Origin: an uncultured virus (IMG/VR IMGVR_UViG_3300031759_000012)
Lineage: Duplodnaviria; Heunggongvirae; Uroviricota; Caudoviricetes
Strand: one strand, 5' to 3'
Virus record (IMG/VR): IMGVR_UViG_3300031759_000012
Length of the DNA stretch: 64,000 bases
The position numbers and the translations under genes were made by a program. The notes beneath the pieces were generated by a model. It saw only the letters and a program-made list of their open reading frames with translations, was not told where the DNA came from and did not search any database. Positions within the stretch are counted from its first letter, which is position 1. Every line of letters starts with the position of its first letter. Of this stretch, positions 2,305-37,097 are shown piece by piece.

Positions 2305-3395
2305 TTGTTTATAATCTCTTCCTTGTTATTAGTATAATCATTTTCCCATATTTCTAGCAAATCATAACCTCGTTCGGTGTAATAATCTTTTCTCAATTCA
2401 TCTTTTTTCCATATATAAGCAGATGACCAAGTTTTTTTAAATGGATGAGGGAATTCGTTCTCGGTAAACATTTGTGGGTTGGCATGAAATAAATTTCCTT
2501 GGAATTCTATTATTTTACCTTTATAAAACAAATCTGGCAAAATGCATTTTTGTTCCATAGATTCTGACCATTGTTTTGGTAAATTCCATACCATTTCATT
2601 TTCGCCATAAAAGTACAAATCATCAATAGATTCTTTTATATAATTTATACATTCTAATGACCATTTACTTACAGTGTGCTTGTTGGCAGTTTTTAATAAA
2701 AAAGATTGGTATCTTCTTGTACCTTCTTCAATACCATATTTGTCAATGAAAAAAGTTAAATTTCTAGATTTGCATAATTTTAACAATTCAATTCCAAGAA
2801 CTTCTCCATAAGTGTCTATGTAGTATTCTCTGCTTACCTTGTAAGCCTGTTTATCTTTTTTATCTTTCCATATTTGGTAACCTTTTTCATAACCATACTT
2901 ATCAATGAACCAATTTAAATTTCGTCTGGCATAAGTTCCTCGTTTTGATTTAAAACTTTTATTTCGTTTTTCCAAGTATTGGTTCCATTTTATTATACCA
3001 TCTATTTCACCATACCGTTCTTTATATATCTCAAGGGATGCGCCATTAAGTCTCAATTTTTTTAATGCCTCATCTTCTCCATATTTTTCAATGTAATATT
3101 CTTTTGTTCTTGAGCATAATTTATTTTTATTTTCCCACATAGTTGTCCCGGCTTGTTTGCCATATCTAACTATATGGGATTCTAATGAACTACTGTCATT
3201 GTTAAGCAATTTTATTTGCTCCCAATTGTCTGCTAAAATTTGAAAATCTAATCCAAGTTCATAATATTTTTTTATAAATCTGCACAACTTTTTATACGAC
3301 TTTTTATCGCAATCTATGTTTTTTAAAATATCAATTTGCTGAGTTGTTAAATTGAATTGTTTTATAAATCTGCTCTCCGCTATCATCTGTGTCAT
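2271..3395 (-). CDS. free-standing homing endonuclease, Vsr/DUF559-like, between the gp41 intein halves
   Basis: C-terminal PDLFYKGKIIEFQGNLFHANP...D..R....GY.LLEIWE nuclease motif; repeated KYGxEEG-like units. Confidence 0.8.
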   Translation of the reverse strand: MTQMIAESRFIKQFNLTTQQIDILKNIDCDKKSYKKLCRFIKKYYELGLDFQILADNWEQIKLLNNDSSSLESHIVRYGKQAGTTMWENKNKLCSRTKEYYIEKYGEDEALKKLRLNGASLEIYKERYGEIDGIIKWNQYLEKRNKSFKSKRGTYARRNLNWFIDKYGYEKGYQIWKDKKDKQAYKVSREYYIDTYGEVLGIELLKLCKSRNLTFFIDKYGIEEGTRRYQSFLLKTANKHTVSKWSLECINYIKESIDDLYFYGENEMVWNLPKQWSESMEQKCILPDLFYKGKIIEFQGNLFHANPQMFTENEFPHPFKKTWSSAYIWKKDELRKDYYTERGYDLLEIWENDYTNNKEEIINKCINFLKSKMK

Positions 3396-4710
3396 TTGAG
3401 TTCTCCTGAGTTGCAGTTGTATTTATCATAGAGAACATCATATCACTAACTTTTAATCCATCTTCTAACGATTTTAATCCATCTTTTGTTGGAAATGTAT
3501 GTTTAGCACTACATGTTACAGTTTTTCCAGATTTCGTTGTTATTTTAAATAGAGGTTGTTTTATGATTGGTGTTTTTTCTATAACTTGAACTGGACCTTC
3601 ATTTGAATCCAACCAATCGCCAACATTAACATCTTTAATTTTAATGCTATTACCGTTTGATATTACAGTTGTATCAAGAGAAAGGCAACGATTCAACTGT
3701 GCAGCAGTTTGGCCAATCATTTGTCTATCGACCAATAGTCCACGTAGTTCTTCGGTGACAAATTTGTCTTTCACGAACAAATTGCTTGGATCTATTCTCT
3801 TGTTATTTGGAAATAACAAATCTAGATAGTCAACCACTAAAACATCTGGTCGTTTTTGACGTTCAATTTCATAGGTTTTTAGATAGGCTTTGATATCATT
3901 GCATGTGCTACCTTGTGGAAGTTGTTTAACATGCAAGTCACCACTTTTACGTCCAGCTTGTTTTACTTTTATTTCTACTTCATCTATTTTTCGAAAAATT
4001 TCTTTAGTTGAAATTTCACTCAACATGCTATCCATACGCATAGCACACAACTCTTCACTAAGCTCTAGTGTGATATAAACAACATTTAAACCTTTAAGTG
4101 CAAAATTAATAGCAATATTTTGTAAAAACAGGGATTTTCCAACACCAGAACCTGCACACCAAATAGTTATCTCACCTCTATTAACACCGCCGTATAGTTT
4201 ATCATCAACTGCTTTCCATCCTGTACTAACCTGCCCATTGCTATGGCGTATACGTTCTAAACGAGCTTTTGGATCTTCAAAGTAATTTGTACCAATGTCG
4301 TTGGTCAAGCTGATTAGGATAGCTTCTCTAACACGCTTCTCTACTTCGCCATAATTACCTTTTTCAATCAAGTCAACTGCAGATAAAACTGCATTAGCCA
4401 AGGCTCTATTTTTACAAAATTCTTCAATTTCATCTAAAAATGCATCTTGATGCTGAACTGTGATGTTCTCAATTTTTTGAAAATTTAATCCAGTCTCAGC
4501 ATTTACCTGCTCTATTTTCGGCAGTACATTGTATTTTTCAGACTGCTTCAAAATATAACGTATAGCTGGCCGAAATTTATTTACAAAATAGTTTGCATCG
4601 AGAATATTTTGGCAACGAGCATAAATTTCGTCACTGCTTAGTAGCACGTCGATTAGAAGTTTTTGTTTTTCTTCGCTGTAATCTCTTGTTTCTTCTGGCT
4701 CTTTTGCCAT
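3331..4710 (-). CDS. gp41: replicative helicase gp41/DnaB, N-terminal fragment ending in a split-intein N-part
   Basis: Walker A AGSGVGKS, VVDYLDL, AAQLNR followed by intein block A CLSLDTTV (Cys at 3687) and block B TCSAKHTF. Confidence 0.93.
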   Translation of the reverse strand: MAKEPEETRDYSEEKQKLLIDVLLSSDEIYARCQNILDANYFVNKFRPAIRYILKQSEKYNVLPKIEQVNAETGLNFQKIENITVQHQDAFLDEIEEFCKNRALANAVLSAVDLIEKGNYGEVEKRVREAILISLTNDIGTNYFEDPKARLERIRHSNGQVSTGWKAVDDKLYGGVNRGEITIWCAGSGVGKSLFLQNIAINFALKGLNVVYITLELSEELCAMRMDSMLSEISTKEIFRKIDEVEIKVKQAGRKSGDLHVKQLPQGSTCNDIKAYLKTYEIERQKRPDVLVVDYLDLLFPNNKRIDPSNLFVKDKFVTEELRGLLVDRQMIGQTAAQLNRCLSLDTTVISNGNSIKIKDVNVGDWLDSNEGPVQVIEKTPIIKQPLFKITTKSGKTVTCSAKHTFPTKDGLKSLEDGLKVSDMMFSMINTTATQENSNDTDDSGEQIYKTIQFNNSAN

Positions 4711-4711
4711 T

Positions 4712-5737
4712 TTATGACCTCAACATTTGTCTTTTTACACCAATTTCTAGTGTGCTAGATGTTCTAGAAGCAATAACACTAGCTATTGTATATAATCTAC
4801 CGTACTGTTTACTAGCATCTGCACAGTCTTTTATACCTTCATTCCATTCTGGAAATGAAACTGACCATTTGTTAGCTATAGCCGCATCAATTAAATCTTG
4901 GTTCTTAAGTTGTCTATCTGGAATTACAATTTTTTCTTTATCAATACTGTTTAGCCATTGTATTTGCTGTTTGTTTAGTGTACTACCTAACGGTGATATT
5001 CCATCTATTGCTATGGCATCAAATGGTCCTTCTACTATCATTACATACTTTCTATGATAAAGATTGAGCACTCTGTTATTAAACAAATAACCAGTAGGAA
5101 TGTCACTGTTGTAATACTTTGGAATATGTTTAGGAGGTGTGCCTGCATATCTACAGGTATATCCTACGACCTTATTGTTATGATAAAACGGAATAATTAG
5201 GCGTTTATTAAGATTTGATTCTTTTATAGGCGACCAATAGTAAGTCCATCCATCTTTAATTGCTCTGCCTCTACTAGACAAATAGTCTAAACAACTTTGA
5301 AAATCTGTAGATGTATTTTGACTTTGGGACCAAAAATTTATTGGCTGCGACTGTTCGGGTAATTGGCATTCCGGAAAATGGTCAGCATGAAACTGAATAT
5401 GCTCATTTGTTTCTTCTATTTCCCCGCTTAATTTTTTACTTAATATTTCTAGTTTTGCTTGTTGTATTTTGTTTGCAGGAACACCTAGATATCTGAGCCA
5501 ATTTTCAAAATTGTGGCCTAAATCACCGCCTTTATATGCGGTTTTAAACCCGCAATTATAGCAGTTTACAATAATACCACCGTCGCCGGTTATCAATAAA
5601 TTGCCTCTGCCTCTAGTATCTTGATTATGACCCCTATGATGACAACATACTGAGTTGAAGACAATCCACCCCTTTGCATTTTGCTTGCGTTTAGGTGGCA
5701 AGTAATCAAGCACAATCTCATGAATAAGTGAGGTCAT
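4712..5737 (-). CDS. gp61: DNA primase, gp61-like
   Basis: N-terminal Zn-binding Cys motifs (VCC...CYNCG); TOPRIM VEGPFDA; position next to the helicase. Confidence 0.85.
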   Translation of the reverse strand: MTSLIHEIVLDYLPPKRKQNAKGWIVFNSVCCHHRGHNQDTRGRGNLLITGDGGIIVNCYNCGFKTAYKGGDLGHNFENWLRYLGVPANKIQQAKLEILSKKLSGEIEETNEHIQFHADHFPECQLPEQSQPINFWSQSQNTSTDFQSCLDYLSSRGRAIKDGWTYYWSPIKESNLNKRLIIPFYHNNKVVGYTCRYAGTPPKHIPKYYNSDIPTGYLFNNRVLNLYHRKYVMIVEGPFDAIAIDGISPLGSTLNKQQIQWLNSIDKEKIVIPDRQLKNQDLIDAAIANKWSVSFPEWNEGIKDCADASKQYGRLYTIASVIASRTSSTLEIGVKRQMLRS

Positions 5738-11486: not shown

Positions 11487-11514
11487 CTGCCCTGTCACAA
11501 ACAGGCAGACTCAG

Positions 11515-11560
11515 AAAATCCTTGATAATTAGCCGGAGCGAAATTATCAAGGATTTTTTT
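11515..11560. terminator. bidirectional intrinsic terminator
   Basis: 16-bp inverted repeat AAAATCCTTGATAATT / AATTATCAAGGATTTT plus T-run, between convergent genes. Confidence 0.75.
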
Positions 11561-12059
11561 AAAACATTTTTCTTATGTCTAAGTTGTCTGGTATTTTACC
11601 AGAATCTTTAACGAAAAAAGCACATAACGGGGACTCGCCGCCTGATAATGGCACAGCAAGTAAATGACCATTTTTTAATTTTGGAAAATACCATTTAACA
11701 TCCGGCCATGTGTTTACAATTTCTAATCTTAAAAAGCTAGGCATAAAACCGTTTATAGGATTAAAACAAAACACATCAAAATCTTTATCCATAAGGTATA
11801 CAAGCGGCATTATTTCCAAGTCGCCCATATTCATATCGCCAATTACAACGCTCCAATCAAGAGGCATCTGTATATTATATTTTCCAATTCTAATATCAAT
11901 ACAGGGGCTATTAAAACTTTCCAGAAATATCAGTGGAAGAAAAAAATAGTCAACATCATTTTGATTTGAGTAATCTAAAACGCAATATCGTAAATCGTCT
12001 ACCTTATCTGGAATTTGAGTTATAGAATATGCCTTGTTATCGTGAGTAAGTATTTTAAT
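11559..12059 (-). CDS. conserved phage hypothetical protein with a probable ATT start
   Basis: frame of ORF 11559-11867 stays open to 12104; AGGAG lies 7 nt before ATT at 12059, giving (M)KILTHDNKAY..., 166 aa. Confidence 0.65.
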   Translation of the reverse strand: MKILTHDNKAYSITQIPDKVDDLRYCVLDYSNQNDVDYFFLPLIFLESFNSPCIDIRIGKYNIQMPLDWSVVIGDMNMGDLEIMPLVYLMDKDFDVFCFNPINGFMPSFLRLEIVNTWPDVKWYFPKLKNGHLLAVPLSGGESPLCAFFVKDSGKIPDNLDIRKMF

Positions 12060-12120
12060 TGAATTTCTCCTGGCAAATGATGCCAGGTATTTACAATTTG
12101 AAGGTCAATATTTTTTTTAA

Positions 12121-12960
12121 TCAGTAAGTTATTTTTTTCATATTAGATGGATATTGAACATCTGCATAAAATTTTTTACGTTTTAATAAATGCCTGTTGG
12201 AAAATTTACATCTACTGGCTATATCATAAATCTCAACTGCGTCCTTGTCATCTGCTTTTCTTAGTCCTCTGCCAATGCTTTGTATAACTCTTACAAAACT
12301 TTTGCCTGGTTCTAACAACACTAGATTGAAAATTCTATTAATCGATATGCCTGTAGAGGTAGTACCATACGTGGCTATCATAATAGCATTATCAGCAAAA
12401 TTTATTTCGTCATATAATACTTTACGTTTAGTACTCTTCATTTGGCCGCTTATGAAGGTTGAATTTGGTATCAATTCTGAAAGAAGTTCACCTGTTTCAA
12501 TTCTATCTATCAACACCAACGTATTTCCACTTTTAGCAATTTCTAAAATTCGTTTTGCCAACCAACCTATACGATGTTTGTTTGTGGTTAAAAACTTTAG
12601 TTCTTCTTGGTAATTTTTGTAAATTATATCTTCTTGTGTTTGTTCTATATTCACGTGACACTGTGCTAGATGCCCTTGCTCTTGCAATTCTCTAGCAGTA
12701 AGTCTGCCTATCATTGGCCCTATGGCACTGAATAAACTTGCTTGATTATATTCCTCTTCCGGAATTGTGCCTGTGAGGCCCCAACGTATTGGAATATTTG
12801 AAAACGTGTTAGTTAGCAGCCCGTGCAATACATTCATGTTTTTCACACTATGACAGTTAGACACTACGGCCCGTTCTACTATATAATTGTGATCATCCTG
12901 TACATGTAGGTTGTAAACTTGATCAGGTTTACTGATTTCTCGGCGACTTAGCAGTTTCAT
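12121..12960 (-). CDS. uvsW: UvsW-like SF2 helicase, C-terminal fragment preceded by a 35-aa split-intein C-part
   Basis: IntC MKLLSRRE...VYNLHVQDDHNYIVERAVVSN (12960-12856), +1 Cys; helicase motifs GLTGT and QSIGRGLR. Confidence 0.9.
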   Translation of the reverse strand: MKLLSRREISKPDQVYNLHVQDDHNYIVERAVVSNCHSVKNMNVLHGLLTNTFSNIPIRWGLTGTIPEEEYNQASLFSAIGPMIGRLTARELQEQGHLAQCHVNIEQTQEDIIYKNYQEELKFLTTNKHRIGWLAKRILEIAKSGNTLVLIDRIETGELLSELIPNSTFISGQMKSTKRKVLYDEINFADNAIMIATYGTTSTGISINRIFNLVLLEPGKSFVRVIQSIGRGLRKADDKDAVEIYDIASRCKFSNRHLLKRKKFYADVQYPSNMKKITY

Positions 12961-13840
12961 ATAGGTATCCTATCTTTCTTGCAGTTTCAGAATCAAATCT
13001 AGCTAGATCTGGCAATGGTACATTAGACGTTAGCCATTGTTGATCAATTAGCAATATTTTATAATCGTGTTGTTTTGCCCAGTCTTTAAGGACAGTATAT
13101 TTTGCTTCCCATTTAGTGCCATTAAACAAGTTGTAAGGTTTGACCTCAACTACAAGTTTATCAACATGATCAATAAAATCAACGATGTACACATAATTCT
13201 TACCATCTAACATGTACATTAAACGAAGTTGTTCGTATTCAGATTGTTGATTATGATAATGGTATAATGCTTCCCAGCTAGATCTGTATTTTTTACCATC
13301 AAATGTTGAATTCCATCGACCAAATTGATTACTAGATTTTGGTGTAAATTTTCCAGTTAATATTAAATTTGTTATTGTTTTGGACAGATGGCACTTCTCC
13401 TCGTCAGAGTGTAGTCGTCCATACATTCCGTTATTTTTGCCAGAATTCTGTTGTCCTATTTTATGTTTGGTCTCCGTTGAATGTTTTTTACCTGTAAATG
13501 TACCAGGTTTTCCTTTACTCCAGGGTATGCCGGTGTTTAAATTTTTCCGTATAGTCTCACTGTTCATATTCCATGATTTTTTTCCTCGATTTATTGCCAA
13601 CTGATGTTTTATATCATATTCTGTTATTTCACCACAAAACAATTTATCAAAGTTTTCAATCCATATACTAGTACGTGTGTTGGACAATCTAAGCCTAAAT
13701 ACATTTTTATTTTTTCCCGTTATTATTACCCCATTCGACAACTTAATTAATGATCTATTATAGTCATCTATTCTTAGATTTTGATTATAATTTTCTAAAA
13801 TACTATTGAATCGCGTTATTATATTTTCATACGTTGCCAT
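12929..13840 (-). CDS. free-standing endonuclease (NUMOD3 repeats + PD-(D/E)XK, TnsA/gp4-like) between the UvsW intein halves
   Basis: NUMOD3-like GKKHSTETKHKIG and GRLHSDEEK; YRSSWE...YIVDF...VVEVKP. Confidence 0.78.
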   Translation of the reverse strand: MATYENIITRFNSILENYNQNLRIDDYNRSLIKLSNGVIITGKNKNVFRLRLSNTRTSIWIENFDKLFCGEITEYDIKHQLAINRGKKSWNMNSETIRKNLNTGIPWSKGKPGTFTGKKHSTETKHKIGQQNSGKNNGMYGRLHSDEEKCHLSKTITNLILTGKFTPKSSNQFGRWNSTFDGKKYRSSWEALYHYHNQQSEYEQLRLMYMLDGKNYVYIVDFIDHVDKLVVEVKPYNLFNGTKWEAKYTVLKDWAKQHDYKILLIDQQWLTSNVPLPDLARFDSETARKIGYLYETAKSPRNQ

Positions 13841-13876
13841 AAAATACCTATATGTCTTTGACTGTATGTATTTATG

Positions 13877-14887
13877 TTAATAGTTGATAATGTCGTGATC
13901 AACAGTTATTTCATCAGCTCGGCACCACCCGATGGTGGTTAAAAACTTATGATTACCAGTAACCTGTATTTTTGAATGATTATCAAATTCTAATTCATAC
14001 ATCTTTTCATTTGTTGAATCGGTTAGATTGCAATGTTGTTTTATTACAGTGTCAACTTTGAATTGTTGTAACTTCTCAGAATAGTTGATAACCTGTTGCC
14101 CAGACGATATATCCTTTATTGGAATATATCCGGTAGGTGTTAAAACACGCATATCACCATTAAAACATTCATCGCATACCACTGCCACTAGATTATCTAA
14201 AAACACAGCCAGTTGGTCATCATCTAAAGCATCTTTATTTTTCTTATCTAAAACATTTAAACTCTGCCACGTGCAAATAGTATGGGTGCGATTATATTCT
14301 TTTCTATCGCCAAATAGTACGCCGACATCTAGTCCAATATTTCTGTAATCTTCTTCTGTTTGCAGAACTAAATTTTTATTAGGAACGATAACGATTGTAC
14401 GACCATATTTTTGGGCAATCATAGATAGACTTGCTGTAATAATTGTTTTACCGGCACTAGTTGGTGCAACCGAAATTCCCTGTAAGTTATTGACGCACTC
14501 ATTAATGGCTTGAACTTGGTAATCTCTTAGAATAATAGGTTGCCCTGCAAATCTGTGTCCTGCAGGCCACACAATATGGCTTAAAAAATTTTCATCTATG
14601 TTATCAAATTCAAAAACGTGCTTAGTTCTTTTGTCAGTTATGGTAAATTCATAGCCTTCGTCAAGTAGAACAGGTAAAATTTTATCTAGCAAATTAAGGT
14701 ATGTTCTACCACCTAAAGTACAAAAACTTGTGGTCCCGTCCCATCGTCCTAGTTTAAATGCTGGACTATAGCGAGCATGTGGTAGAAAATATTTTACAGC
14801 GTTTACACATAACCGGCGTGTTTTGAGATCAAGTCCTTCTAGTTTTACTGTAGTTTCATCTTCAATTATTAATTCAACTTGTTTCAT
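13877..14887 (-). CDS. uvsW: UvsW-like SF2 helicase, N-terminal fragment ending in a 96-aa split-intein N-part
   Basis: LRDYQ, APTSAGKT, VVCDE followed by CFNGDMRVLTP (Cys at 14167) and block B VTGNHKF. Confidence 0.9.
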   Translation of the reverse strand: MKQVELIIEDETTVKLEGLDLKTRRLCVNAVKYFLPHARYSPAFKLGRWDGTTSFCTLGGRTYLNLLDKILPVLLDEGYEFTITDKRTKHVFEFDNIDENFLSHIVWPAGHRFAGQPIILRDYQVQAINECVNNLQGISVAPTSAGKTIITASLSMIAQKYGRTIVIVPNKNLVLQTEEDYRNIGLDVGVLFGDRKEYNRTHTICTWQSLNVLDKKNKDALDDDQLAVFLDNLVAVVCDECFNGDMRVLTPTGYIPIKDISSGQQVINYSEKLQQFKVDTVIKQHCNLTDSTNEKMYELEFDNHSKIQVTGNHKFLTTIGWCRADEITVDHDIINY

Positions 14888-14889
14888 TG

Positions 14890-15357
14890 TTAGCCACCTT
14901 TTGTATCAAGATTAGCATCTTCCATGCCAACTACTCGTAGTCGAACAATGTTTGATATTTGCCAATTTTTAATTTCTAGTCCCTTCATAAGGGCTAGGTA
15001 TTTGTTTCTTACTAGGCCTACTTCATTAATAATCATATTCATGCTGACAATATCGTCCTCGCCATCAATGTATTTTTCTATACTGCGATCAGTTAAATCA
15101 CGCTGGTATCTTTCTAGATATTTTCTATAATGATCGCTTCGCATTTTGTCATATTTGATATTAAGATGTTTTAGGATAGCTTCTATTTCCTGAAGCTGCC
15201 CAAACCTGTGCGAGGTGATACCCGATAATTCTTGCGAATTTTTTTCCAGTTTACCAGATATTTTAGGTTCATTTTTAGCTGAATCAAGTTCGCTATTATA
15301 GTAATCAATTGCCGAAGGAATTTCAGCTAGATTTTCTACTATACGATTATACCACAT
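14890..15357 (-). CDS. uvsY: UvsY-like recombination mediator
   Basis: 155-aa helical protein, YIDGE motif, located between uvsX and uvsW. Confidence 0.7.
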   Translation of the reverse strand: MWYNRIVENLAEIPSAIDYYNSELDSAKNEPKISGKLEKNSQELSGITSHRFGQLQEIEAILKHLNIKYDKMRSDHYRKYLERYQRDLTDRSIEKYIDGEDDIVSMNMIINEVGLVRNKYLALMKGLEIKNWQISNIVRLRVVGMEDANLDTKGG

Positions 15358-15372
15358 TAAAACACATATCTA

Positions 15373-15840
15373 TTATAAAGTTTTCCACAATTTCCAATCT
15401 AAGGCTTTGAGTAACAGCAATGTTTTTGCTTGCAGTTGAAGTTGCAGCCACACCACTTCATTTGGATCTTTTCTAGCAACTGCATGCTCTACTTCGACTA
15501 TTAATTTACGTAAATCATGATCAGTTAACACAAATGCCTGAGATAAAGCTTCTGCATATGATGTGTGCACAGGTGTTTCTGGTACATCTTCATTTGGTTC
15601 ATTTTCAGGTTTTGGTAATTTTATCGTTTTACGCTTAATTAATGATTCTAGTGTTTCTTGTTTGGTTTCAAATTTTGGAACATCATTTTCGATGTGAATA
15701 TTTTGAATCAACATAGAATCGTCAGCGTCTTGTTGATTTAGCACAGGATCAACGGATAGTTTATCGTGTTCTTCAACAACGGAGTTGTCTGTAGACAACT
15801 CCGTTGTAGTGCTTGTGTTTTCGTTTATAGCTGTGCGCAT
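15373..15840 (-). CDS. hypothetical protein
   Basis: ORF 15373-15918; start at 15840 avoids overlap with the upstream gene. Confidence 0.5.
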   Translation of the reverse strand: MRTAINENTSTTTELSTDNSVVEEHDKLSVDPVLNQQDADDSMLIQNIHIENDVPKFETKQETLESLIKRKTIKLPKPENEPNEDVPETPVHTSYAEALSQAFVLTDHDLRKLIVEVEHAVARKDPNEVVWLQLQLQAKTLLLLKALDWKLWKTL

Positions 15841-15856
15841 TAAACGATCTTTAAAT

Positions 15857-16096
15857 TTATTCTTCTTCGTATTCAGGTTCATCTTCATATCCTTCATCGA
15901 GGCTACTTGCCAGTTCATCTAGTGCGTAGTCCAAATGCTCATCTTCTTCCCTTAATTCTTCTAGGTCATCAAGATCTATATCTGCATCTATAAAGATTTT
16001 AAGAAACCGAACAGCAGCATCATTTTTCTTACCAGGTGGTACAAAATCTGAAAATAGCTCCCAAGTTTCCAATAGTACGTGTTCAGAAATTTCCAT
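15857..16096 (-). CDS. small acidic hypothetical protein
   Basis: 79-aa D/E-rich ORF with AGGAG RBS, directly after uvsX part 3. Confidence 0.65.
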   Translation of the reverse strand: MEISEHVLLETWELFSDFVPPGKKNDAAVRFLKIFIDADIDLDDLEELREEDEHLDYALDELASSLDEGYEDEPEYEEE

Positions 16097-16097
16097 G

Positions 16098-16625
16098 TTA
16101 TTCTCCTATATCAGTTACCGTATCATTGTCTAGACTGTCTTGTGTTTGTAATAGTTTGCTTTCATCCCACTCATTCATGATTTGATCTAGAAGTGACGTA
16201 GGTATAGCTGAACGAAAATATTTGTGTTCTTTACCTGAGTTGTCAACATATTTTAGTTTTGTACTATCTTTTACTAAGACACCTTTCTTCTCAAAAAGGT
16301 CAATGAGACCACTATAAGGATCCATACCTGTATCCCAAGGGATTTTTATTTCAACGTTTTCAAACGGCTTGTTATATCTAGTCTTCATAATTTTGCATGC
16401 AGCACGAATACCACGAACATCTGTAACCTTTTTACCATCTTCGTCTTCTTTAAGCTTGCGCTTTTGCATAGCTACAACAATTGATGATGCATAAATGAAA
16501 CCCGAGTTATGGCTGACTACGCCGCTATCTAATAGATAATGATGCGCATCGGGCACTGATATATCATATACTTTTTTGATACCTATATTTTTTTTACTTT
16601 TAATTTTGATTTTTTGTAGCGACAT
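16098..16625 (-). CDS. uvsX: UvsX/RecA fragment 3, preceded by a 40-aa split-intein C-part
   Basis: IntC MSLQKIKIKSKK...VYDISVPDAHHYLLDSGVVSHN (16625-16506), +1 Ser, then GFIYASSIVV...KTRYNKPF. Confidence 0.92.
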   Translation of the reverse strand: MSLQKIKIKSKKNIGIKKVYDISVPDAHHYLLDSGVVSHNSGFIYASSIVVAMQKRKLKEDEDGKKVTDVRGIRAACKIMKTRYNKPFENVEIKIPWDTGMDPYSGLIDLFEKKGVLVKDSTKLKYVDNSGKEHKYFRSAIPTSLLDQIMNEWDESKLLQTQDSLDNDTVTDIGE

Positions 16626-17595
16626 TTTTGATATACTCCTTTACCATTTTAATTGATTCTAGCATGTTATCTGATTCCCAAACTACTATAGTATGATACC
16701 CTCTGGTATTCAACATACACTGTTGTTTGTTTTTATCTCTGTCCCATATTTCTTGTGCTGTTAAATTTGTTTGTTTATGTAAGTATTCAGAATTATATTT
16801 TTTTGGATTACAATGCCAATAGTCTCCATAAAATTCAACACAAAGATTAAATTCTGGGACAACAAAATCGAAAAAATAATAACAATTAAAATTTGAATCT
16901 AAAATTCCATATTCACCATTTTCATTGCAGGCACTATAAATTTTGCAGCCAGCAAATATATTGCTTAATTCTAGAAAAAAGTTATTTGCCTTTTCTGAAT
17001 TATGTCTATTTTTAAATTTTTTAGACCATAACTTTCGTCCTGCTACTTCTCCATGATTGTTAATATACCCATCTAGTGTATAATTTATTTTTCTAGATTC
17101 ACATAGAGCATTATATTTCAAAGTTCCTTCAGTTTCTCCAAATTTTGATATAAAATATTGCAAAGACATATTATCAGAGCGTTGCATAATGTATGATTTA
17201 GCCTCATCCTCACTCATTCCATGTTCCATCCAATATTCTTTGCAAAATGGAGATCTACGTTTTCTTTCAACCGTATCATATTTTTCTAATCTCAGTTGAC
17301 TATTAGCATGTTGCACTATAGAAACTTGCTTGGTAGCATTTTCCATAGTGTATCCCTTCTTTATCCAATAATCAACGCTACGCGGACTTCGAGATTTCTG
17401 AAGTTGAGATATTTTTTCTTGCGATTCCTGCAATGACAATCCTTTTTTTAGCCAATATTCAGCCGAAGTTTGACTGATTTTTTTAGGCTGTTTTAACTTT
17501 CTGTTGTTTTTGCACAATGATGAACATACATATTGTATAGTCATTATACTATCTTTTTTTCTTATCATTTTTCCGCATTCAACACATGGTTTCAT
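16600..17595 (-). CDS. free-standing homing endonuclease, Vsr/DUF559-like, between the halves of UvsX intein 2
   Basis: YFFDF...VEFYGDYWHCNP...D..K...GY....VWE; YWxKKG repeats; GGAGG RBS before ATG 17595. Confidence 0.82.
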   Translation of the reverse strand: MKPCVECGKMIRKKDSIMTIQYVCSSLCKNNRKLKQPKKISQTSAEYWLKKGLSLQESQEKISQLQKSRSPRSVDYWIKKGYTMENATKQVSIVQHANSQLRLEKYDTVERKRRSPFCKEYWMEHGMSEDEAKSYIMQRSDNMSLQYFISKFGETEGTLKYNALCESRKINYTLDGYINNHGEVAGRKLWSKKFKNRHNSEKANNFFLELSNIFAGCKIYSACNENGEYGILDSNFNCYYFFDFVVPEFNLCVEFYGDYWHCNPKKYNSEYLHKQTNLTAQEIWDRDKNKQQCMLNTRGYHTIVVWESDNMLESIKMVKEYIKNVATKNQN

Positions 17596-17600
17596 GTGGT

Positions 17601-17652
17601 TTGCCCTCCAGTAATTTGTGTACGGTATATTTAGCAAATTACTGGAGGGCAA
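17601..17652 (-). promoter_or_regulatory. RBS-sequestering hairpin with a late promoter in the loop
   Basis: perfect 18-bp inverted repeat TTGCCCTCCAGTAATTTG / CAAATTACTGGAGGGCAA; loop holds TAAATA (17628-17633, minus); 3' arm holds the GGAGG of the nuclease gene. Confidence 0.8.
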
Positions 17653-17662
17653 GGATTATTAG

Positions 17663-18781
17663 TTAAACAAGTTGTAGGATTTCATCATTTACGTACAATT
17701 CCGCTACAGTTTTCCATACTAATTGATTATTAGACTGTTGCGTTGAAAACTTATGTTCGTTAGTGGCCTGAATTATTTCACCAGTTTCTAATTCAATTTC
17801 GATTACTTCTTTGTCATCAAATGTAAAAGTTTCTGAAACATCAATATCACCATCTAATGTCACAACAACATCCCCTTGCCGAATATCTTCAATATTCTTT
17901 GATGAACCGTCTGCCATCCAGATTTTGTGTCCGGCTGTTAAACAACCGCCTGAAATTTTGTCATCTGGATCAAACATGTCTTGTGATTGATAACTATGAT
18001 TAGTCACAACCATGCCTACATCATACTCGCCGAACATGTTCACGCAGTTGCGTACTAGTGCAGCCAGCGCCCGTGGTTTACGTCCCATGTCTCCTTTGAG
18101 GTCGCCTGCTTCAAATTGGTTTACATCGGTAGGTGTTAGCAACATGCCAAGACTATCAAGTACAAAAAGAGTCTTCTTGCGTTCTTCAGGAGCCAGGTCT
18201 TTGTACCATGCCATATAACCGGTAATAGTTTTAGCAACATCGTCAATCATAGCTAGGTTGACTTTGAAAAGCTTATCTGGATCAGTATCAACGCCAAGAG
18301 GTTTTAACCACTTTTCATCTAATGCGTTTTCTGTATCAATTAAGACAACAAATATACCTTGTTGCTGTGCATTCCGAACCATATTACCAGAACAGATATA
18401 AGATTTACCAGAATTATGACTAGAAAATCCATCTCCCCAGTAACGGTGGTTATCATGTAGGACTTCGAAATCAAAACATTCTTGATCATCTATGTCTGTA
18501 GTTGCAATAACAGTTTGCGGTCCGCTTGTAGTTAATAAAACATCGCCTACATTCACTTCTCCAGCTAATACCCAATCTTCTGAATCTAATTGTAGAAGAT
18601 GGGTATATGCACATGATGTAGTGTGTGATTCCGTAATTATTGAAACCATTTGTAATTTGCCCTTATCAAACCATTGACCTATCGGTTGATAACCATCGGG
18701 TGTATCTATTTCAATATGGTAATTATTACTAGCGACCATGTTTTTTAATAGTTCTATAGTAACTTCCTGCTCAATAAACAT
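17663..18781 (-). CDS. uvsX: UvsX/RecA fragment 2: IntC(1, 123 aa) - RecA core (156 aa) - IntN(2, 93 aa)
   Basis: ...HRYWGDGFSSHN|SGKSYIC; RecA motifs IDTENALD, VLDSLGML, GDMGRKP, VTNHSY; DKISGG|CLTAGHKIWMADG (Cys at 17944), block B QATNEHKF. Confidence 0.93.
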   Translation of the reverse strand: MFIEQEVTIELLKNMVASNNYHIEIDTPDGYQPIGQWFDKGKLQMVSIITESHTTSCAYTHLLQLDSEDWVLAGEVNVGDVLLTTSGPQTVIATTDIDDQECFDFEVLHDNHRYWGDGFSSHNSGKSYICSGNMVRNAQQQGIFVVLIDTENALDEKWLKPLGVDTDPDKLFKVNLAMIDDVAKTITGYMAWYKDLAPEERKKTLFVLDSLGMLLTPTDVNQFEAGDLKGDMGRKPRALAALVRNCVNMFGEYDVGMVVTNHSYQSQDMFDPDDKISGGCLTAGHKIWMADGSSKNIEDIRQGDVVVTLDGDIDVSETFTFDDKEVIEIELETGEIIQATNEHKFSTQQSNNQLVWKTVAELYVNDEILQLV

Positions 18782-19913
18782 AATTTTTTCCTATACTTTC
18801 TAACAAGGTTGTAACAACTACATCAGGTTGTTGTCTATATTCATTTTCCCAAATTATGAGTAATTTAGACACGTGAGATGTATCTTCTTTAATTTTTGTT
18901 GCTCTAGTTGCGTCTGTTGTCCATTTTTCTTTCGAACAGTAACCATGTGTAAAAAAATCTGCTGAAAAAAACAATGGATTTCTATGCCAATAATCTCCGT
19001 AGAATTCAATGACTGTTTTTGATTCAAGATGATAGAAATCTACTCTAAATCCGCCTATCAATGCTTCGTGTGTAGTTGGCTTAAAATAACATGTTCCTTT
19101 GAGTTTTTCTCGAAGAGTTAAAAAAAGCTTATGCGATATATTTGAAAATGGAGACCTATTGATTTGTCGCATTCGTTCGCACATATCGCTGTATGCTGTA
19201 ATCGCATCATCCTCTGAATATCCCCTAAGTATATATCCATCAATTGATAATGATTTTTTACGATTTATAAGAGAAATTTCTTCAGTACTTTTAGATTGTA
19301 ATGTATCTAGCCACGATTTAATTCTATTCTCAAATAAAATCTTCCCGCGTTCTTTCCCGTATTTTTCAGTATAAAATTTTAATCCATTAGTGGTTTGAAC
19401 TCTACGCACTTGCTCGGCTGCATCAGATTCAGTCAATCCCTTACGTAACCAGTATTCAATCGATCTATGTGTATAAATGTTCTTGCCACGTGTTTTTTCA
19501 ACTGATTTTTTGTTCCTCTCAAGTTGTATCTCTTTAACTTTGTCATTAGCCGCTGCTATATCAAATCCTAAATCTGTCCAATATTTTACAGTATTTTTAA
19601 AATGTTTGCTACGCCTGGTGTCCTGTTCGTGCTTAATTTTTTCAAAATTTTTCTTGCCATACCGTAAAAACGCAGAAACATTTGATCGATCAGTTGGTAT
19701 TTTCATCAATCTACGTAACCTTCCAACATAATTTATTAAATCATATTTTATAAAAGTTGCTATAGTTATATGCCACGTTTCTAATGACTTGCAAGTTCGG
19801 TCTTTAAATACTGCATTTAATCTAGTTATCTGTAAATCAGTTAATGCAATATTTCCTAATATTGCAATAACTGATTTCCGTTTCATAAATCTTTTAGCCT
19901 GTTTGTTCAACAT
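18771..19913 (-). CDS. free-standing homing endonuclease, Vsr/DUF559-like, between the halves of UvsX intein 1
   Basis: FRVDFY...VIEFYGDYWHRNP...D..R...LLIIWE; YWxxxG repeats. Confidence 0.82.
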   Translation of the reverse strand: MLNKQAKRFMKRKSVIAILGNIALTDLQITRLNAVFKDRTCKSLETWHITIATFIKYDLINYVGRLRRLMKIPTDRSNVSAFLRYGKKNFEKIKHEQDTRRSKHFKNTVKYWTDLGFDIAAANDKVKEIQLERNKKSVEKTRGKNIYTHRSIEYWLRKGLTESDAAEQVRRVQTTNGLKFYTEKYGKERGKILFENRIKSWLDTLQSKSTEEISLINRKKSLSIDGYILRGYSEDDAITAYSDMCERMRQINRSPFSNISHKLFLTLREKLKGTCYFKPTTHEALIGGFRVDFYHLESKTVIEFYGDYWHRNPLFFSADFFTHGYCSKEKWTTDATRATKIKEDTSHVSKLLIIWENEYRQQPDVVVTTLLESIGKNYVY

Positions 19914-19977
19914 ATTATGTTTCCTAGTATTATTTTTACATAGTATTTATTATTATGCTGGACAAACAGGTAAAATA

Positions 19978-20214
19978 TTATTTCAATTTATATTGTATAC
20001 GAACCTTGGCTGATGCAGGCAAACAACCACTCTGACCAGCAAACATCGTAACCTTGCCTAATGGGATTCCATTCCTAAAGTTACCAGATATTGCATAATT
20101 TAGTGCATAATTACCCGAATCTACCCAGTGTTTTGGATCATTAAATCCAACAGAAATACCTGGAATACTTTTTGTCAGATCTTTTCTAAATTTTGAGATG
20201 TCAAAAGGACGCAT
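19978..20214 (-). CDS. uvsX: UvsX/RecA fragment 1, ending in a 15-aa atypical split-intein N-part
   Basis: MRPFDISKFRK...GIPLGKVTMFAGQSG|CLPASAKVRIQYKLK-stop; GGAG RBS before ATG 20214. Confidence 0.9.
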   Translation of the reverse strand: MRPFDISKFRKDLTKSIPGISVGFNDPKHWVDSGNYALNYAISGNFRNGIPLGKVTMFAGQSGCLPASAKVRIQYKLK

Positions 20215-20256
20215 GTGTGTCTCCAATGCTATAATGATGATGTTTTTTGATGTCAC

Positions 20257-20288
20257 AATTGTAACGAGGGATAACCCTCGTTACAATT
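20257..20288. terminator. hairpin/terminator after gp32
   Basis: perfect 14-bp inverted repeat AATTGTAACGAGGG-ATAA-CCCTCGTTACAATT. Confidence 0.65.
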
Positions 20289-20300
20289 TTATGATGTAGC

Positions 20301-21332
20301 TTACTTTCCTTGCTGACGCTTGCGTATTGCAGCAATAATATCATCAGGAGTTTGCATGCGGGGTTTTTCAACTTGTGTAGTTACAGATTGTGTAGCTTGT
20401 GACTGATCTTCCCATGGTGGAGTATCATCAGTTGAGGGTTTTGCCTGAACTTTATTCAGTATTGAATTACCTGTCATGGCAACAGTTGTTTTTGTTGATA
20501 CAACTGTTGCATCTGCGTCACTACTTGTGGTGTCATTACGCATGCTAGTTGGACGGTAAAATTGGCCCCATTTATCAAGATCATATAGTTCTTGATCAAC
20601 GCTAGCTTGGAATAGTTCCATTATAGCATTTAGATGTGCTTCATCTGGTTTTTTAGGCAGAAAACTACTTAGGTTCCATAATCCATGAGTATTCATAGCA
20701 GCAGTTTCTATTTCTGATAGAGCACGCTCCTTCATAGCCCACTTGCTTGATGCATAGTTTGCATAACCGCCTTTAGTAGTCTTGATAAGGTAGAAATCAC
20801 GTCCGTGGTCGAAATCAGTAGGACTATTTTCGAGATCTTGATCCATAAGGATTGATTTAATAACATCAAACACTGATGGATTGATGATAAATCTACGGAT
20901 CGGATTTTCCGGTTCCTGATCATCCTTATTAGGGTTTGATGGAACAAAGCCTTGGAACAGATAGCTCTTCTTTTTGTAATACTTCCGAGCCATGTCTTCG
21001 AGGCTCTTGTCTTTCCACCATGGACGAATTTCTGCTGTAATTGGACAAGAGCCTGCTTTCCACATATCTGTGCACGGAACTTGAACATCGACAGGTCTTC
21101 CAATAGGATCGCCTTTTACACCAGGAAATGGTAATTTAATGATTAAGCGTTCACACCAGAAAAAATCGTTTGATTCATCGCCGTCTGGTAAGAATCTAAG
21201 AGTAGCGCTTGAACCATCTGGATTATTCCAGAAAGGATAAATCGAATTGTCGCCACCGCCATTCTTTGCTCGGTCTTTATTGGCTTGTTGTGCCAGTAGT
21301 TTTGCTTGTATTTCTTTAAGACTTAGTGCCAT
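20301..21332 (-). CDS. gp32: single-stranded DNA-binding protein gp32-like
   Basis: LRFLPD, KGGYANYASSKW, flexible C-terminus; next to uvsX. Confidence 0.85.
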   Translation of the reverse strand: MALSLKEIQAKLLAQQANKDRAKNGGGDNSIYPFWNNPDGSSATLRFLPDGDESNDFFWCERLIIKLPFPGVKGDPIGRPVDVQVPCTDMWKAGSCPITAEIRPWWKDKSLEDMARKYYKKKSYLFQGFVPSNPNKDDQEPENPIRRFIINPSVFDVIKSILMDQDLENSPTDFDHGRDFYLIKTTKGGYANYASSKWAMKERALSEIETAAMNTHGLWNLSSFLPKKPDEAHLNAIMELFQASVDQELYDLDKWGQFYRPTSMRNDTTSSDADATVVSTKTTVAMTGNSILNKVQAKPSTDDTPPWEDQSQATQSVTTQVEKPRMQTPDDIIAAIRKRQQGK

Positions 21333-21485
21333 TTTATGTGCCTCCTTTATGTGCCTAATTAGTGTCTAAGACAACTGTAGATCATCATTCTGTTCTACTG
21401 TTGACAATACTATTTATCCCAGTTGGTGAAAGCAAATTTGTTTTCGAAAAAAAATTAATCAAAAAGATCCAAGAAATCACTAGGA

Positions 21486-22310
21486 TCAAGTTCGCACGAC
21501 TCTATCCAGGCTTTTTTTTTGATAAATGGATTTTTGTTCCCATAACGGATCAGGGTCCATACCCTTGTTAATGAACGGTAACTGTGAAATAGACCACGGT
21601 CTAATATGTGTGGCTTTAAAATGTCCTAGAATTTCTTTTCCGCCCATTAGACTTTTCATTGCATAAAGAGATGGAAGGTGAAATTCGTCACCATGCATAA
21701 ATTGCTCAATACCGTCTGTTAGTTGAGTGTCTAAAAAGGCACAGGTTGTTAGGTTAGCAGCAATAGCTCCGGCACGCCAATTAAAATCTGGAGCAAGTAA
21801 TCCATTAACATGAGAAATGCAGTCCAATGACATTCCACTTTTATATGTAGGGTTAAGTCTAATTTTGGTTTCTTCTTCCTGAAATCCGCCCGGTGGACCC
21901 GGGCGATAAAGTATGTCTGATCGTATGCTCAATACATTATCATACACGAAATCATTATCAAGCTCATGTTGTCTTTTCATAATTCCAGCGTGATAATCGT
22001 ATCAGGTTTGCTTCCAGTAAGACAATGGCAAAAATTTAAAGGTGTGTATAGCATTATTGCAAAATTCATATGACTTCTGCCTGTCAAAAATGCTTTGAAT
22101 CTCGCTATCGTCAAGAAAAAGGTAATCTATAAGTCTTGAATTATCAAATATTCTGTGTATTGTATTGGATGTGCATGAATTATCACAGGCTAATACAACG
22201 TACCAGTCTGGGTGGTTGTATATCCTGTCAAACAAACGTAGGTTATATGGTAGCACATGTTCCCATGTCCTTGCTTGCCCTTTTACAATAATAGCGGTTC
22301 TCATGTCCAT
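21486..22310 (-). pseudogene. hypothetical glycosyltransferase-associated gene interrupted by one in-frame TGA
   Basis: ORFs 22002-22310 and 21486-21980 share a frame and join as SYWKQT*YDYHAGIMKRQHE; IVKGQAR and YD.V...RSD motifs also occur in ORF 58633. Confidence 0.6.
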
Positions 22311-29631: not shown

Positions 29632-30081
29632 TTATTTGTTTCGTTTAATATTTTTGCCTTTTGCAACGAATATATCATCTTCTGTAAGAATTCTAAATTG
29701 TAAACCGTGTTTTTTGCAATACAACATTGCGGCCGCCCATTTTGCAGTATTGACAACTAGCGCAGCCTTGTCTCTTTTGCTTTTAGCGTTTTCCAATATA
29801 GCTTCTTTACGTGGCTTGACTTCGATTATTTCAGCTCTTTGTTTTCCAAATTTATCTTTGTAGACTACCATAAAATCTGGATAATATGTATGTAATTTAC
29901 CAGTCAAAGGATTTTTATAAGGAATTGAAATGCTTTCACTTGCCCAGTTTATGACATTAGGATGAGTATCAAGCAGTCTCATTACCCGCAGTTCCCATGC
30001 GCTTCTATATACTGGAACTGCATTACCTACAAGCTTTTTTGGATTCAATGGTGTAAATTCACCTTGGCTGTATTTTGTCAT
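29632..30081 (-). CDS. gp4: head completion nuclease gp4-like (TnsA-type endonuclease)
   Basis: YRSAWE, WASE.I.IPY, YYPDF, IEVKP, KWAAA..YC...G..FRILTE. Confidence 0.85.
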   Translation of the reverse strand: MTKYSQGEFTPLNPKKLVGNAVPVYRSAWELRVMRLLDTHPNVINWASESISIPYKNPLTGKLHTYYPDFMVVYKDKFGKQRAEIIEVKPRKEAILENAKSKRDKAALVVNTAKWAAAMLYCKKHGLQFRILTEDDIFVAKGKNIKRNK

Positions 30082-33969: not shown

Positions 33970-34520
33970 AATGGTTAGACTACAGCGACAGACACGTCAT
34001 TAAAGACATAGCCAAATCTGTTTACACCAAACCAAGTCACTTATACCCTACAAATTTAAGCGGTGATTCTCCTCTCTATAATTATTTTTTGGTGCCGCCA
34101 TCGGTTATAGGTTCTGATCAGCGTAAGGTTGCTGTAATTGTAAACAGCAACGGAGAGCCTGTTGTTGCAACAGGTGTTCGAGAATTAGGAAACATTCCTG
34201 CTTGGTTATTAAGTTGGACTGTAAGTTCAATATCTTCTATGTCGTTTGTGGCTGCATGGAGACAAACCTTAAATTTTACAACAGCCTATTACGAATCAAA
34301 AAGTATAAATGAATTTTACGTGGTTAGTCCGGTTGAGCGCGAAGAAGCATATAGTAGAATGACAAGTTTTATGAGAAACCGATATTGGACTTTTGTCGAG
34401 CAAACTATCCCCAAAGGCACTAGGCCAACACACAGTCTTTATCATACCATAACTGGTAACATTTTATATACATATGATATAAACATAAGAAGGTATATTT
34501 TGAAAAGAGATCCTGTATGA
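33954..34520 (+). CDS. hypothetical protein, possible GNAT-like fold
   Basis: 188-aa ORF overlapping both neighbours in the operon. Confidence 0.45.
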   Translation: MQFSVKWLDYSDRHVIKDIAKSVYTKPSHLYPTNLSGDSPLYNYFLVPPSVIGSDQRKVAVIVNSNGEPVVATGVRELGNIPAWLLSWTVSSISSMSFVAAWRQTLNFTTAYYESKSINEFYVVSPVEREEAYSRMTSFMRNRYWTFVEQTIPKGTRPTHSLYHTITGNILYTYDINIRRYILKRDPV

Positions 34521-35383: not shown

Positions 35384-36000
35384 CAATAGCTGCAACTGTG
35401 GATAATCAAGTAATAGCAGCGCATGATGATATAGTTATTCTAGAAACAATAAGCGATTATGATTTTGAGGCTATTGTAAAAGTATACGGTTTAAGCGATG
35501 ACGAGTATAATCAACTTAAACAAGGTAATCTTAATTTTAGAGTACGATTTAATAACCTGCGTAGTACCTGGCTAGAAGCATACAATCGTGATGCTCGGAT
35601 AGTTGAACTATCTGTCATTTATAGTGCACGAATAAAGGCATTGATAAACTTAAAAGGAAGGCTAGAGCACGGGCTAAACAAACATAGAAATCTTTTGACA
35701 GATCAAAACAACGTCTATGAACGGAAAGCCAAGGAAGCTATCCAAATTCTAACCAATAAAGAAAGCCCTTTTCGCACTGATGGATTTGTTAGAGACTTTG
35801 CAGAAGAATCAAATATAGACGTTGATTCTGCAGCAGCGCAGATTTTATTAAAACATAACGGTTGGTACCAACATATGCGTAAAATAGAACGATTGCGCAT
35901 TAGACATTTCACTGCAATCAAACAGGCGAAAACTGAGCAAGACTTTCAAACAGCAGCAGCAAATCTTGATAAAGATTTGTTTATCAATATGTTACTGTGA
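35371..36000 (+). CDS. hypothetical protein, C-terminus resembling tail-fibre assembly chaperones
   Basis: YERKAKEA...FAEE...AAQIL...W.....IERLR....AIKQAKT; GGAGA RBS. Confidence 0.4.
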   Translation: MRWIAIAATVDNQVIAAHDDIVILETISDYDFEAIVKVYGLSDDEYNQLKQGNLNFRVRFNNLRSTWLEAYNRDARIVELSVIYSARIKALINLKGRLEHGLNKHRNLLTDQNNVYERKAKEAIQILTNKESPFRTDGFVRDFAEESNIDVDSAAAQILLKHNGWYQHMRKIERLRIRHFTAIKQAKTEQDFQTAAANLDKDLFINMLL

Positions 36001-36013
36001 CCAAGGAGCACAC

Positions 36014-37084: not shown

Positions 37085-37097
37085 AAGTGAAAATCTA

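Follow-up and report, generated by a model that had tools for sequence, protein, structure and literature searches.

How does a phage come by an intact recombinase when the gene for it is broken into three pieces? This question is raised by the uvsX locus at positions 16,098 to 20,214 of a 64,000-nucleotide stretch of DNA (hereafter the window) from an uncultured virus of the Caudoviricetes (IMG/VR record IMGVR_UViG_3300031759_000012). The window belongs to a T4-like myovirus, to judge by its Pfam matches, among them the gp23 capsid protein, gp15, tail sheath, large terminase, a DnaB-type helicase, gp32 and a UvsW-like helicase. Directly downstream of gp32, five open reading frames (ORFs) on the minus strand comprise three pieces of uvsX and, between them, two nuclease genes. 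An earlier note on this DNA had read the pieces as a UvsX recombinase encoded by three polypeptides that are joined by two different split inteins, with a homing endonuclease gene in each gap, and this core reading is backed by every in-silico test run here. In our view, two unrelated split-intein cassettes have very probably entered uvsX, each at a conserved site of its own, and the three polypeptides of the gene would be trans-spliced into one UvsX.

Organization of the Fractured uvsX Locus

The five ORFs lie where the earlier note had placed them, and every detail that it quoted was confirmed to the residue. The features of the locus, with lengths in amino acids (aa) and with the N- and C-terminal intein fragments designated IntN and IntC, are as follows.

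19978..20214, minus strand: uvsX piece 1, 78 aa; extein 1 (63 aa, 20026-20214) and IntN1, then the stop codon
19981-20025, minus strand: IntN1, 15 aa (CLPASAKVRIQYKLK), the C-terminal end of piece 1
18771..19913, minus strand: nuclease gene 1, 380 aa; putative homing endonuclease gene, paralogue of nuclease 2
17663..18781, minus strand: uvsX piece 2, 372 aa; IntC1, extein 2 and IntN2
18413-18781, minus strand: IntC1, 123 aa, last residues SHN
17945-18412, minus strand: extein 2, the 156-aa RecA core, from SGKS to ISGG
17666-17944, minus strand: IntN2, 93 aa, first residues CLTAG
16600..17595, minus strand: nuclease gene 2, 331 aa from the ATG at 17595; putative homing endonuclease gene
16098..16625, minus strand: uvsX piece 3, 175 aa; IntC2 and extein 3
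16506-16625, minus strand: IntC2, 40 aa, last residues SHN
16101-16505, minus strand: extein 3, 135 aa, first residues SGFIY

The order of a fractured gene, namely extein-IntN, spacer, free-standing endonuclease gene and IntC-extein on the same strand, thus occurs twice within this uvsX. Extein 1 breaks off halfway through the Walker A loop, after FAGQSG, and the quoted junction motifs were all found in the sequence, reading FAGQSG/CLPAS and SHN/SGKS at the first site, and ISGG/CLTAG and SHN/SGFIY at the second. A scripted cut at these motifs gave fragments of 63 + 15, 123 + 156 + 93 and 40 + 135 aa, and reproduced the claimed spliced product of 354 aa, in which Walker A is restored as GQSG + SGKS. 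The ATG of piece 1 has a GGAG 5 nucleotides (nt) upstream, the listed ORF reaching further, to a GTG at 20256; the ATG of piece 3 has an AGGAG upstream, and the listed ORF of nuclease 2 begins at a TTG at 17652. Between the IntN stop codons and the nuclease ATGs lie spacers of 64 nt and 67 nt. Each nuclease gene runs into the piece that follows it, with overlaps of 11 nt (stop of nuclease gene 1, start of piece 2) and 26 nt (3' end of nuclease gene 2, start of piece 3). A scan for promoters and terminators returned 20 promoter-like sites compared with 23.3 expected from shuffles, and one terminator-like site compared with 2.4.

Three Exteins as One UvsX

The profile PHROG 97 (UvsX-like recombinase) matches the three pieces collinearly, at profile positions 18-84, 83-238 and 344-460, with an E value of 2.9e-12 for piece 1, and piece 3 also matches the recombinase profile phrog_18112. 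The seven natural parts of the locus were run by tblastn on 243 related loci (designated by the letter L), made up of 80 + 80 + 80 from three collection scans and three others; some of these are the same contig in two collections (e.g., L085 and L169, both of 17084 bases), and therefore the locus counts given below are not independent. According to the tblastn coordinates, exteins 1 and 2 abut exactly in 220 of the 221 loci that are free of intein 1, the exception being a hit at a contig edge, and exteins 2 and 3 do so in all 225 loci that are free of intein 2. Since the exteins abut exactly wherever the inteins are absent, the three-piece layout is not a product of chance. An alignment of the in-silico spliced product with uninterrupted UvsX, which had been suggested as a check, is collinear and free of indels at both junctions, with GQSG-SGKS (Walker A) and ISGG-SGF restored; the closest full-length uninterrupted homologue, L173, is identical at 287 of the 353 aligned residues. 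Matches to Serratia phage BF and similar jumbo phages, which reach 20 residues into IntN2, were set aside as ordinary uninterrupted uvsX genes.

Intein 1 and the VidaL Family

Residues 2-126 of piece 2 match the intein VidaL (PDB 6vgv/6vgw) with an E value of 5.9e-39, the +1 residues SGK included (phmmer against PDB sequences), and the identity is about 55% over 125 residues. According to the accessible text of the source, VidaL is fast and cysteine-dependent, occurs naturally in an atypically split form, and has a 16-aa IntN, an S1 split after strand beta2 and a half-life of about 1 min (PMC13014065). IntN1 of the window consists of 15 aa followed by a stop codon, and is 15-17 aa long in relatives, which is the natural split point of VidaL; moreover, IntN1 and IntC1 together correspond to the fused VidaL chain. 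By these sequence matches, intein 1 is assigned to the VidaL family of atypically split inteins, as a VidaL orthologue at the same uvsX site. The natural context of VidaL itself is shown by locus L005, a two-piece uvsX without a nuclease gene, whose IntC is identical to the VidaL crystal chain except at 3 of 126 aligned residues. Because the end of its N-piece (IntN and the last extein residues) likewise matches VidaL chain residues 1-18, the natural host of VidaL is a two-piece uvsX cut in the P-loop, at G(E/Q)SG/SGKS. VidaL and intein 1 thus have in common the split point (an IntN of 15-17 aa), the Cys1/Ser+1 chemistry and the insertion site, whereas VidaL-type loci such as L005 are two-piece and without a nuclease, and in the window the polypeptide with IntC1 also bears the IntN of a second intein and a nuclease gene lies in the gap.

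Intein 2 and the Pairing of the Four Intein Fragments

Pfam matches to HINT or intein domains were found at both ends of piece 2 and at the N-terminus of piece 3. With PF14890 (Intein_splicing, 155 positions), the C-terminal end of piece 2 covers positions 13-93 and the start of piece 3 positions 122-155, i.e., complementary halves, and intein 2 is classed from these profiles as a conventional split intein. Its nearest solved relative, as judged with IntN2 by phmmer against PDB sequences, is the gp41-1 intein (6qaz), at an E value of only 2.9e-4. The claim that the two split inteins are different was borne out, intein 1 being VidaL-type and intein 2 conventional: IntC1 and IntN2 share one out-of-register match of 33 residues (E 0.001), and IntC1 and IntC2 gave no alignment at E <= 100. 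As no in-register similarity was seen in either comparison, the two inteins are considered unrelated in sequence.

How the four fragments would find their partners is less simple than had been supposed. It had been argued that the order of assembly is structurally enforced, neither cyclisation of piece 2 nor direct joining of pieces 1 and 3 being able to form a proper HINT fold. This stands for IntN1 with IntC2, which together have 15 + 40 = 55 aa and would lack the middle ~78 HINT residues, but not for IntN2 (residues 1-93) with IntC1 (residues 16-138), which between them hold every element of the fold, so that the structural argument against cyclisation of piece 2 fails. The net charges of the fragments offer another basis for discrimination: across all loci, with 17 middle-piece clusters computed, they range from +1 to +6 for IntN1, -8 to -19 for IntC1, -9 to -21 for IntN2 and +1 to +5 for IntC2. 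Both intein fragments on piece 2 are therefore strongly acidic, the cognate pairs are opposite in charge and both wrong pairs are like-charged. Judged from these sequences, cyclisation of piece 2 is most likely barred by sequence divergence together with like charge.

The Nucleases and the Hairpin

Nucleases 1 and 2 are 22% identical to each other (BLASTP, E 1e-15), and both match phrog_3339, 'homing endonuclease'. Nuclease 1, with the motifs EFYGDYWHRNP and IIWE, also matches phrog_22677 of the same designation, and nuclease 2 combines N-terminal repeated YW..G helix modules with a C-terminal Vsr-like nuclease domain. No usable Pfam match was obtained for the two uvsX nucleases up to E <= 10, and a phmmer search with nuclease 2 against PDB sequences gave chance-level matches only. 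The 46 homologues of nuclease 2, however, include proteins that their source calls 'very short patch repair endonuclease' and proteins with PF18741. The last 151 residues of nuclease 2 were modelled with AlphaFold2 from a 29-row alignment, with a predicted local distance difference test (pLDDT) score of 89, and in a Foldseek search with this model E. coli Vsr was ranked first (probability 1.00, E 0.01), with the homing endonuclease I-Bth0305I tenth. The nuclease ORF that had been reported in each gap is accordingly described here as a predicted Vsr-like homing endonuclease, of Vsr-type fold in both cases. Compared with I-Bth0305I and other Vsr-like (EDxHD) homing endonucleases, the window nucleases are only 12-16% identical and differ in their N-terminal DNA-binding repeats.

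Between the stop codon of piece 2 and the start of nuclease gene 2 lies one further element.

17601..17652, minus strand: perfect RNA hairpin of 18 bp

Its folding free energy is -30.7 kcal/mol (z -7.7), none of 200 shuffles was as stable, and its 3' arm holds the Shine-Dalgarno sequence of nuclease 2 (GGAGGG). The hairpin is retained in L085, L166 and L167, and in the diverged locus L086 a hairpin of different sequence also covers an AGGAG. According to the accessible text of PMC2988022, a hairpin over the ribosome-binding site also regulates I-TevI and segB of T4, as well as mobE of Aeh1. Upstream of nuclease 1, a less convincing fold was obtained (z -3.05).

Recurrence of the Inteins in Related Phages

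Among the 243 loci, uvsX is uninterrupted in 219 and in three pieces in six. The intein-bearing forms can be arranged as follows.

Two contiguous inteins: Salicola phage SCTP-2, in a single 661-aa ORF annotated 'hypothetical'
Contiguous intein 1 alone: L007
Split intein 1 without a nuclease gene: L005, L006, L211-213, L215
Split intein 1 and a nuclease gene: Pseudomonas phage PA5oct group
Split intein 2 and a nuclease gene: L085, L166-171
Split intein 2 with only a remnant of the nuclease gene: L172
Distant version of intein 2: L228
Three-piece uvsX with both nuclease genes: the window; L003, L164 and L165 (100% identical); L086 (63%)
Three-piece uvsX without nuclease genes: L004 (68%), L084 (91%)

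A search for the same five-ORF layout in other phages, as had been advised, thus found it at full identity on three further contigs and in diverged form on a fourth. A wider view comes from a collection of 5.8 billion proteins, in which 8000 candidates were scored and the best 120 clusters listed. These best 120 include 43 clusters with IntC1 and the rest of UvsX, 33 with the N-part and IntN2, 18 middle pieces with the IntC1-extein-IntN2 arrangement (332-387 aa, one of them truncated), 13 with a contiguous intein 1 only, 12 with a contiguous intein 1 together with IntN2, and one with both inteins contiguous. Contiguous forms at the same uvsX sites are present in SCTP-2, L007 (intein 1) and P0113. 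Among 50,697 deposited phage records, SCTP-2 is the only one that covers at least 80% of the middle piece, and megablast of the 4.5-kilobase (kb) region against the same records gave no match. In the deposited records, SCTP-2 gene 204 (L001) and PA5oct gp274-276 (L002) are annotated as 'hypothetical protein' or as 'UvsX-like recombinase' and 'structural protein', and the inteins are not mentioned.

Conserved Residues, Selection and Mobility of the Cassettes

None of the listed intein-bearing loci lacks Cys1, the block B His, the terminal His-Asn or Ser+1, and the same holds for all 18 middle-piece clusters among the best 120. The +1 residue follows the presence of the intein: at site 2 it is Ser in 16/16 loci with intein 2, as against Gln in 223, Gly in one and Ser in one of the 225 readable loci without it, and at site 1 it is Ser in 15/15 loci with intein 1, as against Ala in 134 and Ser in 88 loci without it. 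The single readable locus with Ser+1 at site 2 and no intein 2 is that of PA5oct (L002), whose Ser could be the scar of a lost intein or a pre-adapted site. Ratios of nonsynonymous to synonymous substitution (dN/dS) are 0.12-0.16 for IntN2 in three comparisons (synonymous divergence, dS, 0.18-0.30) and 0.10 against L004, 0.07-0.12 for IntC2 and 0.03-0.08 for the exteins; values for distant pairs were not used, being saturated.

The comparison of the window with L084 separates the history of the inteins from that of their host gene. In bins of 45 nt, intein DNA is 96-100% identical and extein DNA 64-84% identical, and the switch falls at the intein/extein junctions; likewise, the synonymous difference (pS) is 0.69-0.79 in the exteins and 0-0.05 in the intein parts. 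Because intein DNA is near-identical between phages whose extein DNA has diverged, the intein cassettes are mobile. Near-identical extein backgrounds that differ by one intein are seen in P0071 versus P0098 and in P0052 versus P0112. In a tree of extein 2 (121 rows, 156 columns), 14 changes of the three-piece state are required, and well-supported branches force at least four of them; as the tree is poorly resolved, with 56 of 113 inner branches open, only this lower bound on the number of origins is used.

The nuclease genes, too, are cleanly present or absent between close relatives, which is the indirect evidence for their predicted cleavage of the nuclease-free or intein-free allele. L084 lacks ~1079 bp (window 18896-19974) and 966 bp, which is nearly all of each nuclease gene, and its nuclease-free gaps look like deletion derivatives that kept the ribosome-binding region of the downstream IntC gene. 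Tails of the nuclease genes persist in nuclease-free relatives (L084 at 3386-3508 and 4642-4728, L172 at 1486-1572) and comprise the last ~41 or ~29 codons; they begin at a conserved (I/V)(I/V)WE motif, overlap the start of the IntC gene, and may have been kept for a ribosome-binding or promoter function.

Assembly Model and Alternative Explanations

The reading that we favour is the invasion of one gene by two cassettes, each of which would consist of the end of an IntN gene, a free-standing gene for a Vsr-like homing endonuclease and the start of an IntC gene, the invasion sites being the Walker A loop (GQSG/SGKS) and the ISGG/(Q/S)GF motif. The basic 15-aa IntN1 of piece 1 would dock into the acidic 123-aa IntC1 of piece 2, in the manner of a VidaL-type intein split after the second strand, and the acidic 93-aa IntN2 of piece 2 would zip with the basic 40-aa IntC2 of piece 3, as in a conventional split intein. 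Each rebuilt HINT domain would then splice via Cys1, the block B His, the terminal His-Asn and Ser+1, and the outcome would be a 354-aa UvsX with its P-loop intact. Only the linear order 1-2-3 would be fixed, the wrong pairings being like-charged and unrelated and the fold of IntN1 with IntC2 also incomplete; since the two splicing reactions would be independent, either could be first. The endonucleases would be selfish passengers, by which the cassettes are carried into intein-free alleles of uvsX when phages co-infect a cell, and the hairpin over the ribosome-binding site would hold back translation of at least nuclease 2.

Several points weigh against this model. Splicing, like the association of the fragments, their orthogonality and the activity of the nucleases, is a prediction from DNA sequence; intein 2 is without a characterised close relative, gp41-1 being so distant a match; the dN/dS of IntC1 is unusable, its comparisons being either near-identical (dS 0.013) or saturated; and duplicate contigs make the locus counts non-independent. 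The charge pattern occurs in two-piece relatives too and is a class property of each intein, and hence it is not an adaptation to three-piece assembly. Finally, as the window is part of a genome, a second, intact recombinase is possible outside it.

Other explanations of the locus may be weighed with the same evidence. The fragments might associate via their intein halves with no splicing, or with splicing at one junction only, so that UvsX would be a non-covalent complex of two or three chains, comparable with the ribonucleotide reductase of phage Aeh1, a case of intein-free 'genes in pieces'. Such a complex would have a parallel in a gene split by a homing endonuclease and working as two peptides, which is cited in the accessible text of PMC10448857, and would sit well with the isolation of intein 2 from characterised inteins. 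We nevertheless consider it unlikely, because the catalytic residues of both inteins are invariant in relatives down to 38-60% identity, because the association of Ser+1 with the intein at both sites is of relevance only if splicing occurs, and because an unspliced domain of 138 aa would interrupt the P-loop. Still less probable is a decaying uvsX overrun by selfish elements, with recombination left to another recombinase of phage or host. Three split inteins and three endonuclease genes within 8 kb (including the helicase locus described below), and the chance of a second recombinase elsewhere in the genome, speak for decay; yet all five ORFs are open and have ribosome-binding sites, the dN/dS of the exteins is low, the arrangement is kept in lineages down to 63% identity, and no other RecA-family match was found among the 66 further ORFs of the window that were scanned.

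That the window derives from an uncultured source invites the thought of a metagenome assembly chimera, but the five-gene layout recurs, identical on L003, L164 and L165 and diverged on L086, and the nuclease-free three-piece form is found on L004 and L084; as independent contigs carry the layout, this origin is in effect excluded. Removal of the nuclease gaps at the RNA level, in the style of a group I intron, with translation of a single ORF, is barely credible either. T4-like phages do have endonuclease-bearing group I introns, as stated in the accessible text of PMC2988022, but no group I intron or other Rfam match was found in 11500-21500 at E <= 1, each gap is bordered by HINT half-domains, and the nuclease-free relatives keep a stop codon, a spacer of 65-74 nt and a new ribosome-binding site with ATG at each gap.

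Relationship to Known Systems

Fractured genes were described by Dassa, London, Stoddard, Schueler-Furman and Pietrokovski in 2009, with 12 examples and spacers of 27-51 bases in the accessible text (PMC2677866). As described there, those genes share with the window the same-strand order, the short spacer, a Vsr-like nuclease and an origin in replication and recombination genes of T4-like phages. In the accessible text, however, they are 'fractured in two', and uvsX appears only as an intact neighbouring gene (PMC2677866), whereas the uvsX of the window is fractured in three and, unlike those loci, cut twice, once by an atypical and once by a conventional split intein. The nearest natural parallels are found in two named phages. 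UvsX of SCTP-2 (MF360958, gene 204) is interrupted at the same two sites by homologues of intein 1 and intein 2, both of which, unlike those of the window, are contiguous in one ORF; PA5oct gp276/gp275/gp274 encode a piece 1 with a 17-aa IntN, a Vsr-like nuclease and IntC with the rest of UvsX, and differ from the window in being two-piece and without intein 2.

The closest likeness in design is artificial. The accessible texts on three-segment assembly by orthogonal split-intein pairs present it as an engineering practice in which much effort goes into finding compatible pairs (PMC12707363; bioRxiv 10.1101/2023.01.23.525296). Engineered tandem trans-splicing, or 'protein transposition', has a design identical to that of the window, namely N-fragment-IntN(A), IntC(A)-insert-IntN(B) and IntC(B)-C-fragment (PMC11185735; bioRxiv 10.1101/2023.01.23.525296; PMC12707363, in their accessible parts), and the system of Muir, as described in the accessible parts of two of these sources (PMC11185735; bioRxiv 10.1101/2023.01.23.525296), even combines VidaL or Cat, on the N-side, with a conventional C-side intein, as in the window. 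The engineered systems pair inteins of different organisms by hand, whereas the pair in the window co-occurs naturally on one essential protein.

The earlier note had left the novelty of the arrangement undecided. Its parts, the VidaL family and the fractured-gene layout of 2009, are known, but the three-piece combination appears to be undescribed: a full-text literature search, in which subscription papers were thinly covered, found no paper on a natural host gene cut by two split inteins. A more ambitious version of the favoured model, which we offer tentatively and with slightly more doubt than confidence, is that the locus is the first described case of natural tandem (two-junction) trans-splicing. 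In such a case, the only recombinase of the phage would be built in vivo from three polypeptides by co-resident orthogonal split inteins, their orthogonality would arise from the reversed polarity of their charges, IntN1 being basic and IntC1 acidic but IntN2 acidic and IntC2 basic, and the state would have originated at least four times by independent homing of both cassettes.

Other Features of the Window

A second fractured gene is found 1.2 kb downstream, at 12121-14887 on the minus strand. It encodes a UvsW-like helicase of superfamily 2 (SF2), whose DECH box is cut by a third, conventional split intein.

13877-14887, minus strand: helicase N-part, ending ..VVCDE/CFNGD.. with IntN
12929-13840, minus strand: nuclease gene in the helicase gap, of a different kind, with NUMOD3 and phrog_15427 'endonuclease' matches
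12121-12960, minus strand: helicase C-part, beginning with an IntC that ends ..VVSN/CHSV

L098, L173, L174 and L177 have an intact uvsX and, ~2.7 kb downstream of it, a match resembling IntN2 (34-37% identity, residues 13-81), which is probably the intein of the neighbouring helicase gene. At 29632-30081 on the minus strand, amid unannotated phage genes, a small ORF matches the N-terminal domain of TnsA-like endonucleases (E 1.5e-22) and may be another free-standing nuclease. Host-like metabolic genes occupy two regions, 34517-38640 and 51897-60317, and include a fatty-acid desaturase, a Rieske ring-hydroxylating oxygenase and an Asp/Asn beta-hydroxylase, as well as a cluster of genes for sugar-nucleotide epimerase/dehydratase, transketolase-half, methyltransferase and glycosyltransferase proteins. 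In addition, a 1361-aa ORF at 39766-43851 on the minus strand, far longer than a usual sheath protein, has tail-sheath domains only in its last ~230 residues.

Implications

Matched pairs of split inteins, for which engineers have to search, are offered by nature in at least 18 diverged versions, and one member of each pair is related to the laboratory tool VidaL. Because such pairs would have been selected to coexist without cyclising the middle piece, they are candidates for one-pot ligation of three fragments. If the more ambitious version of the model is true, the locus is also self-referential, as the endonucleases would reside within the gene for the very recombinase that repairs the breaks they make. 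The family of loci forms a complete natural series on near-identical host backgrounds, in which inteins are contiguous, split, split and accompanied by a nuclease, or left without the nuclease once more, at one site or at two. This series allows the origin of split inteins, their transfer by free-standing endonucleases and the coexistence of two cassettes in one gene to be compared.

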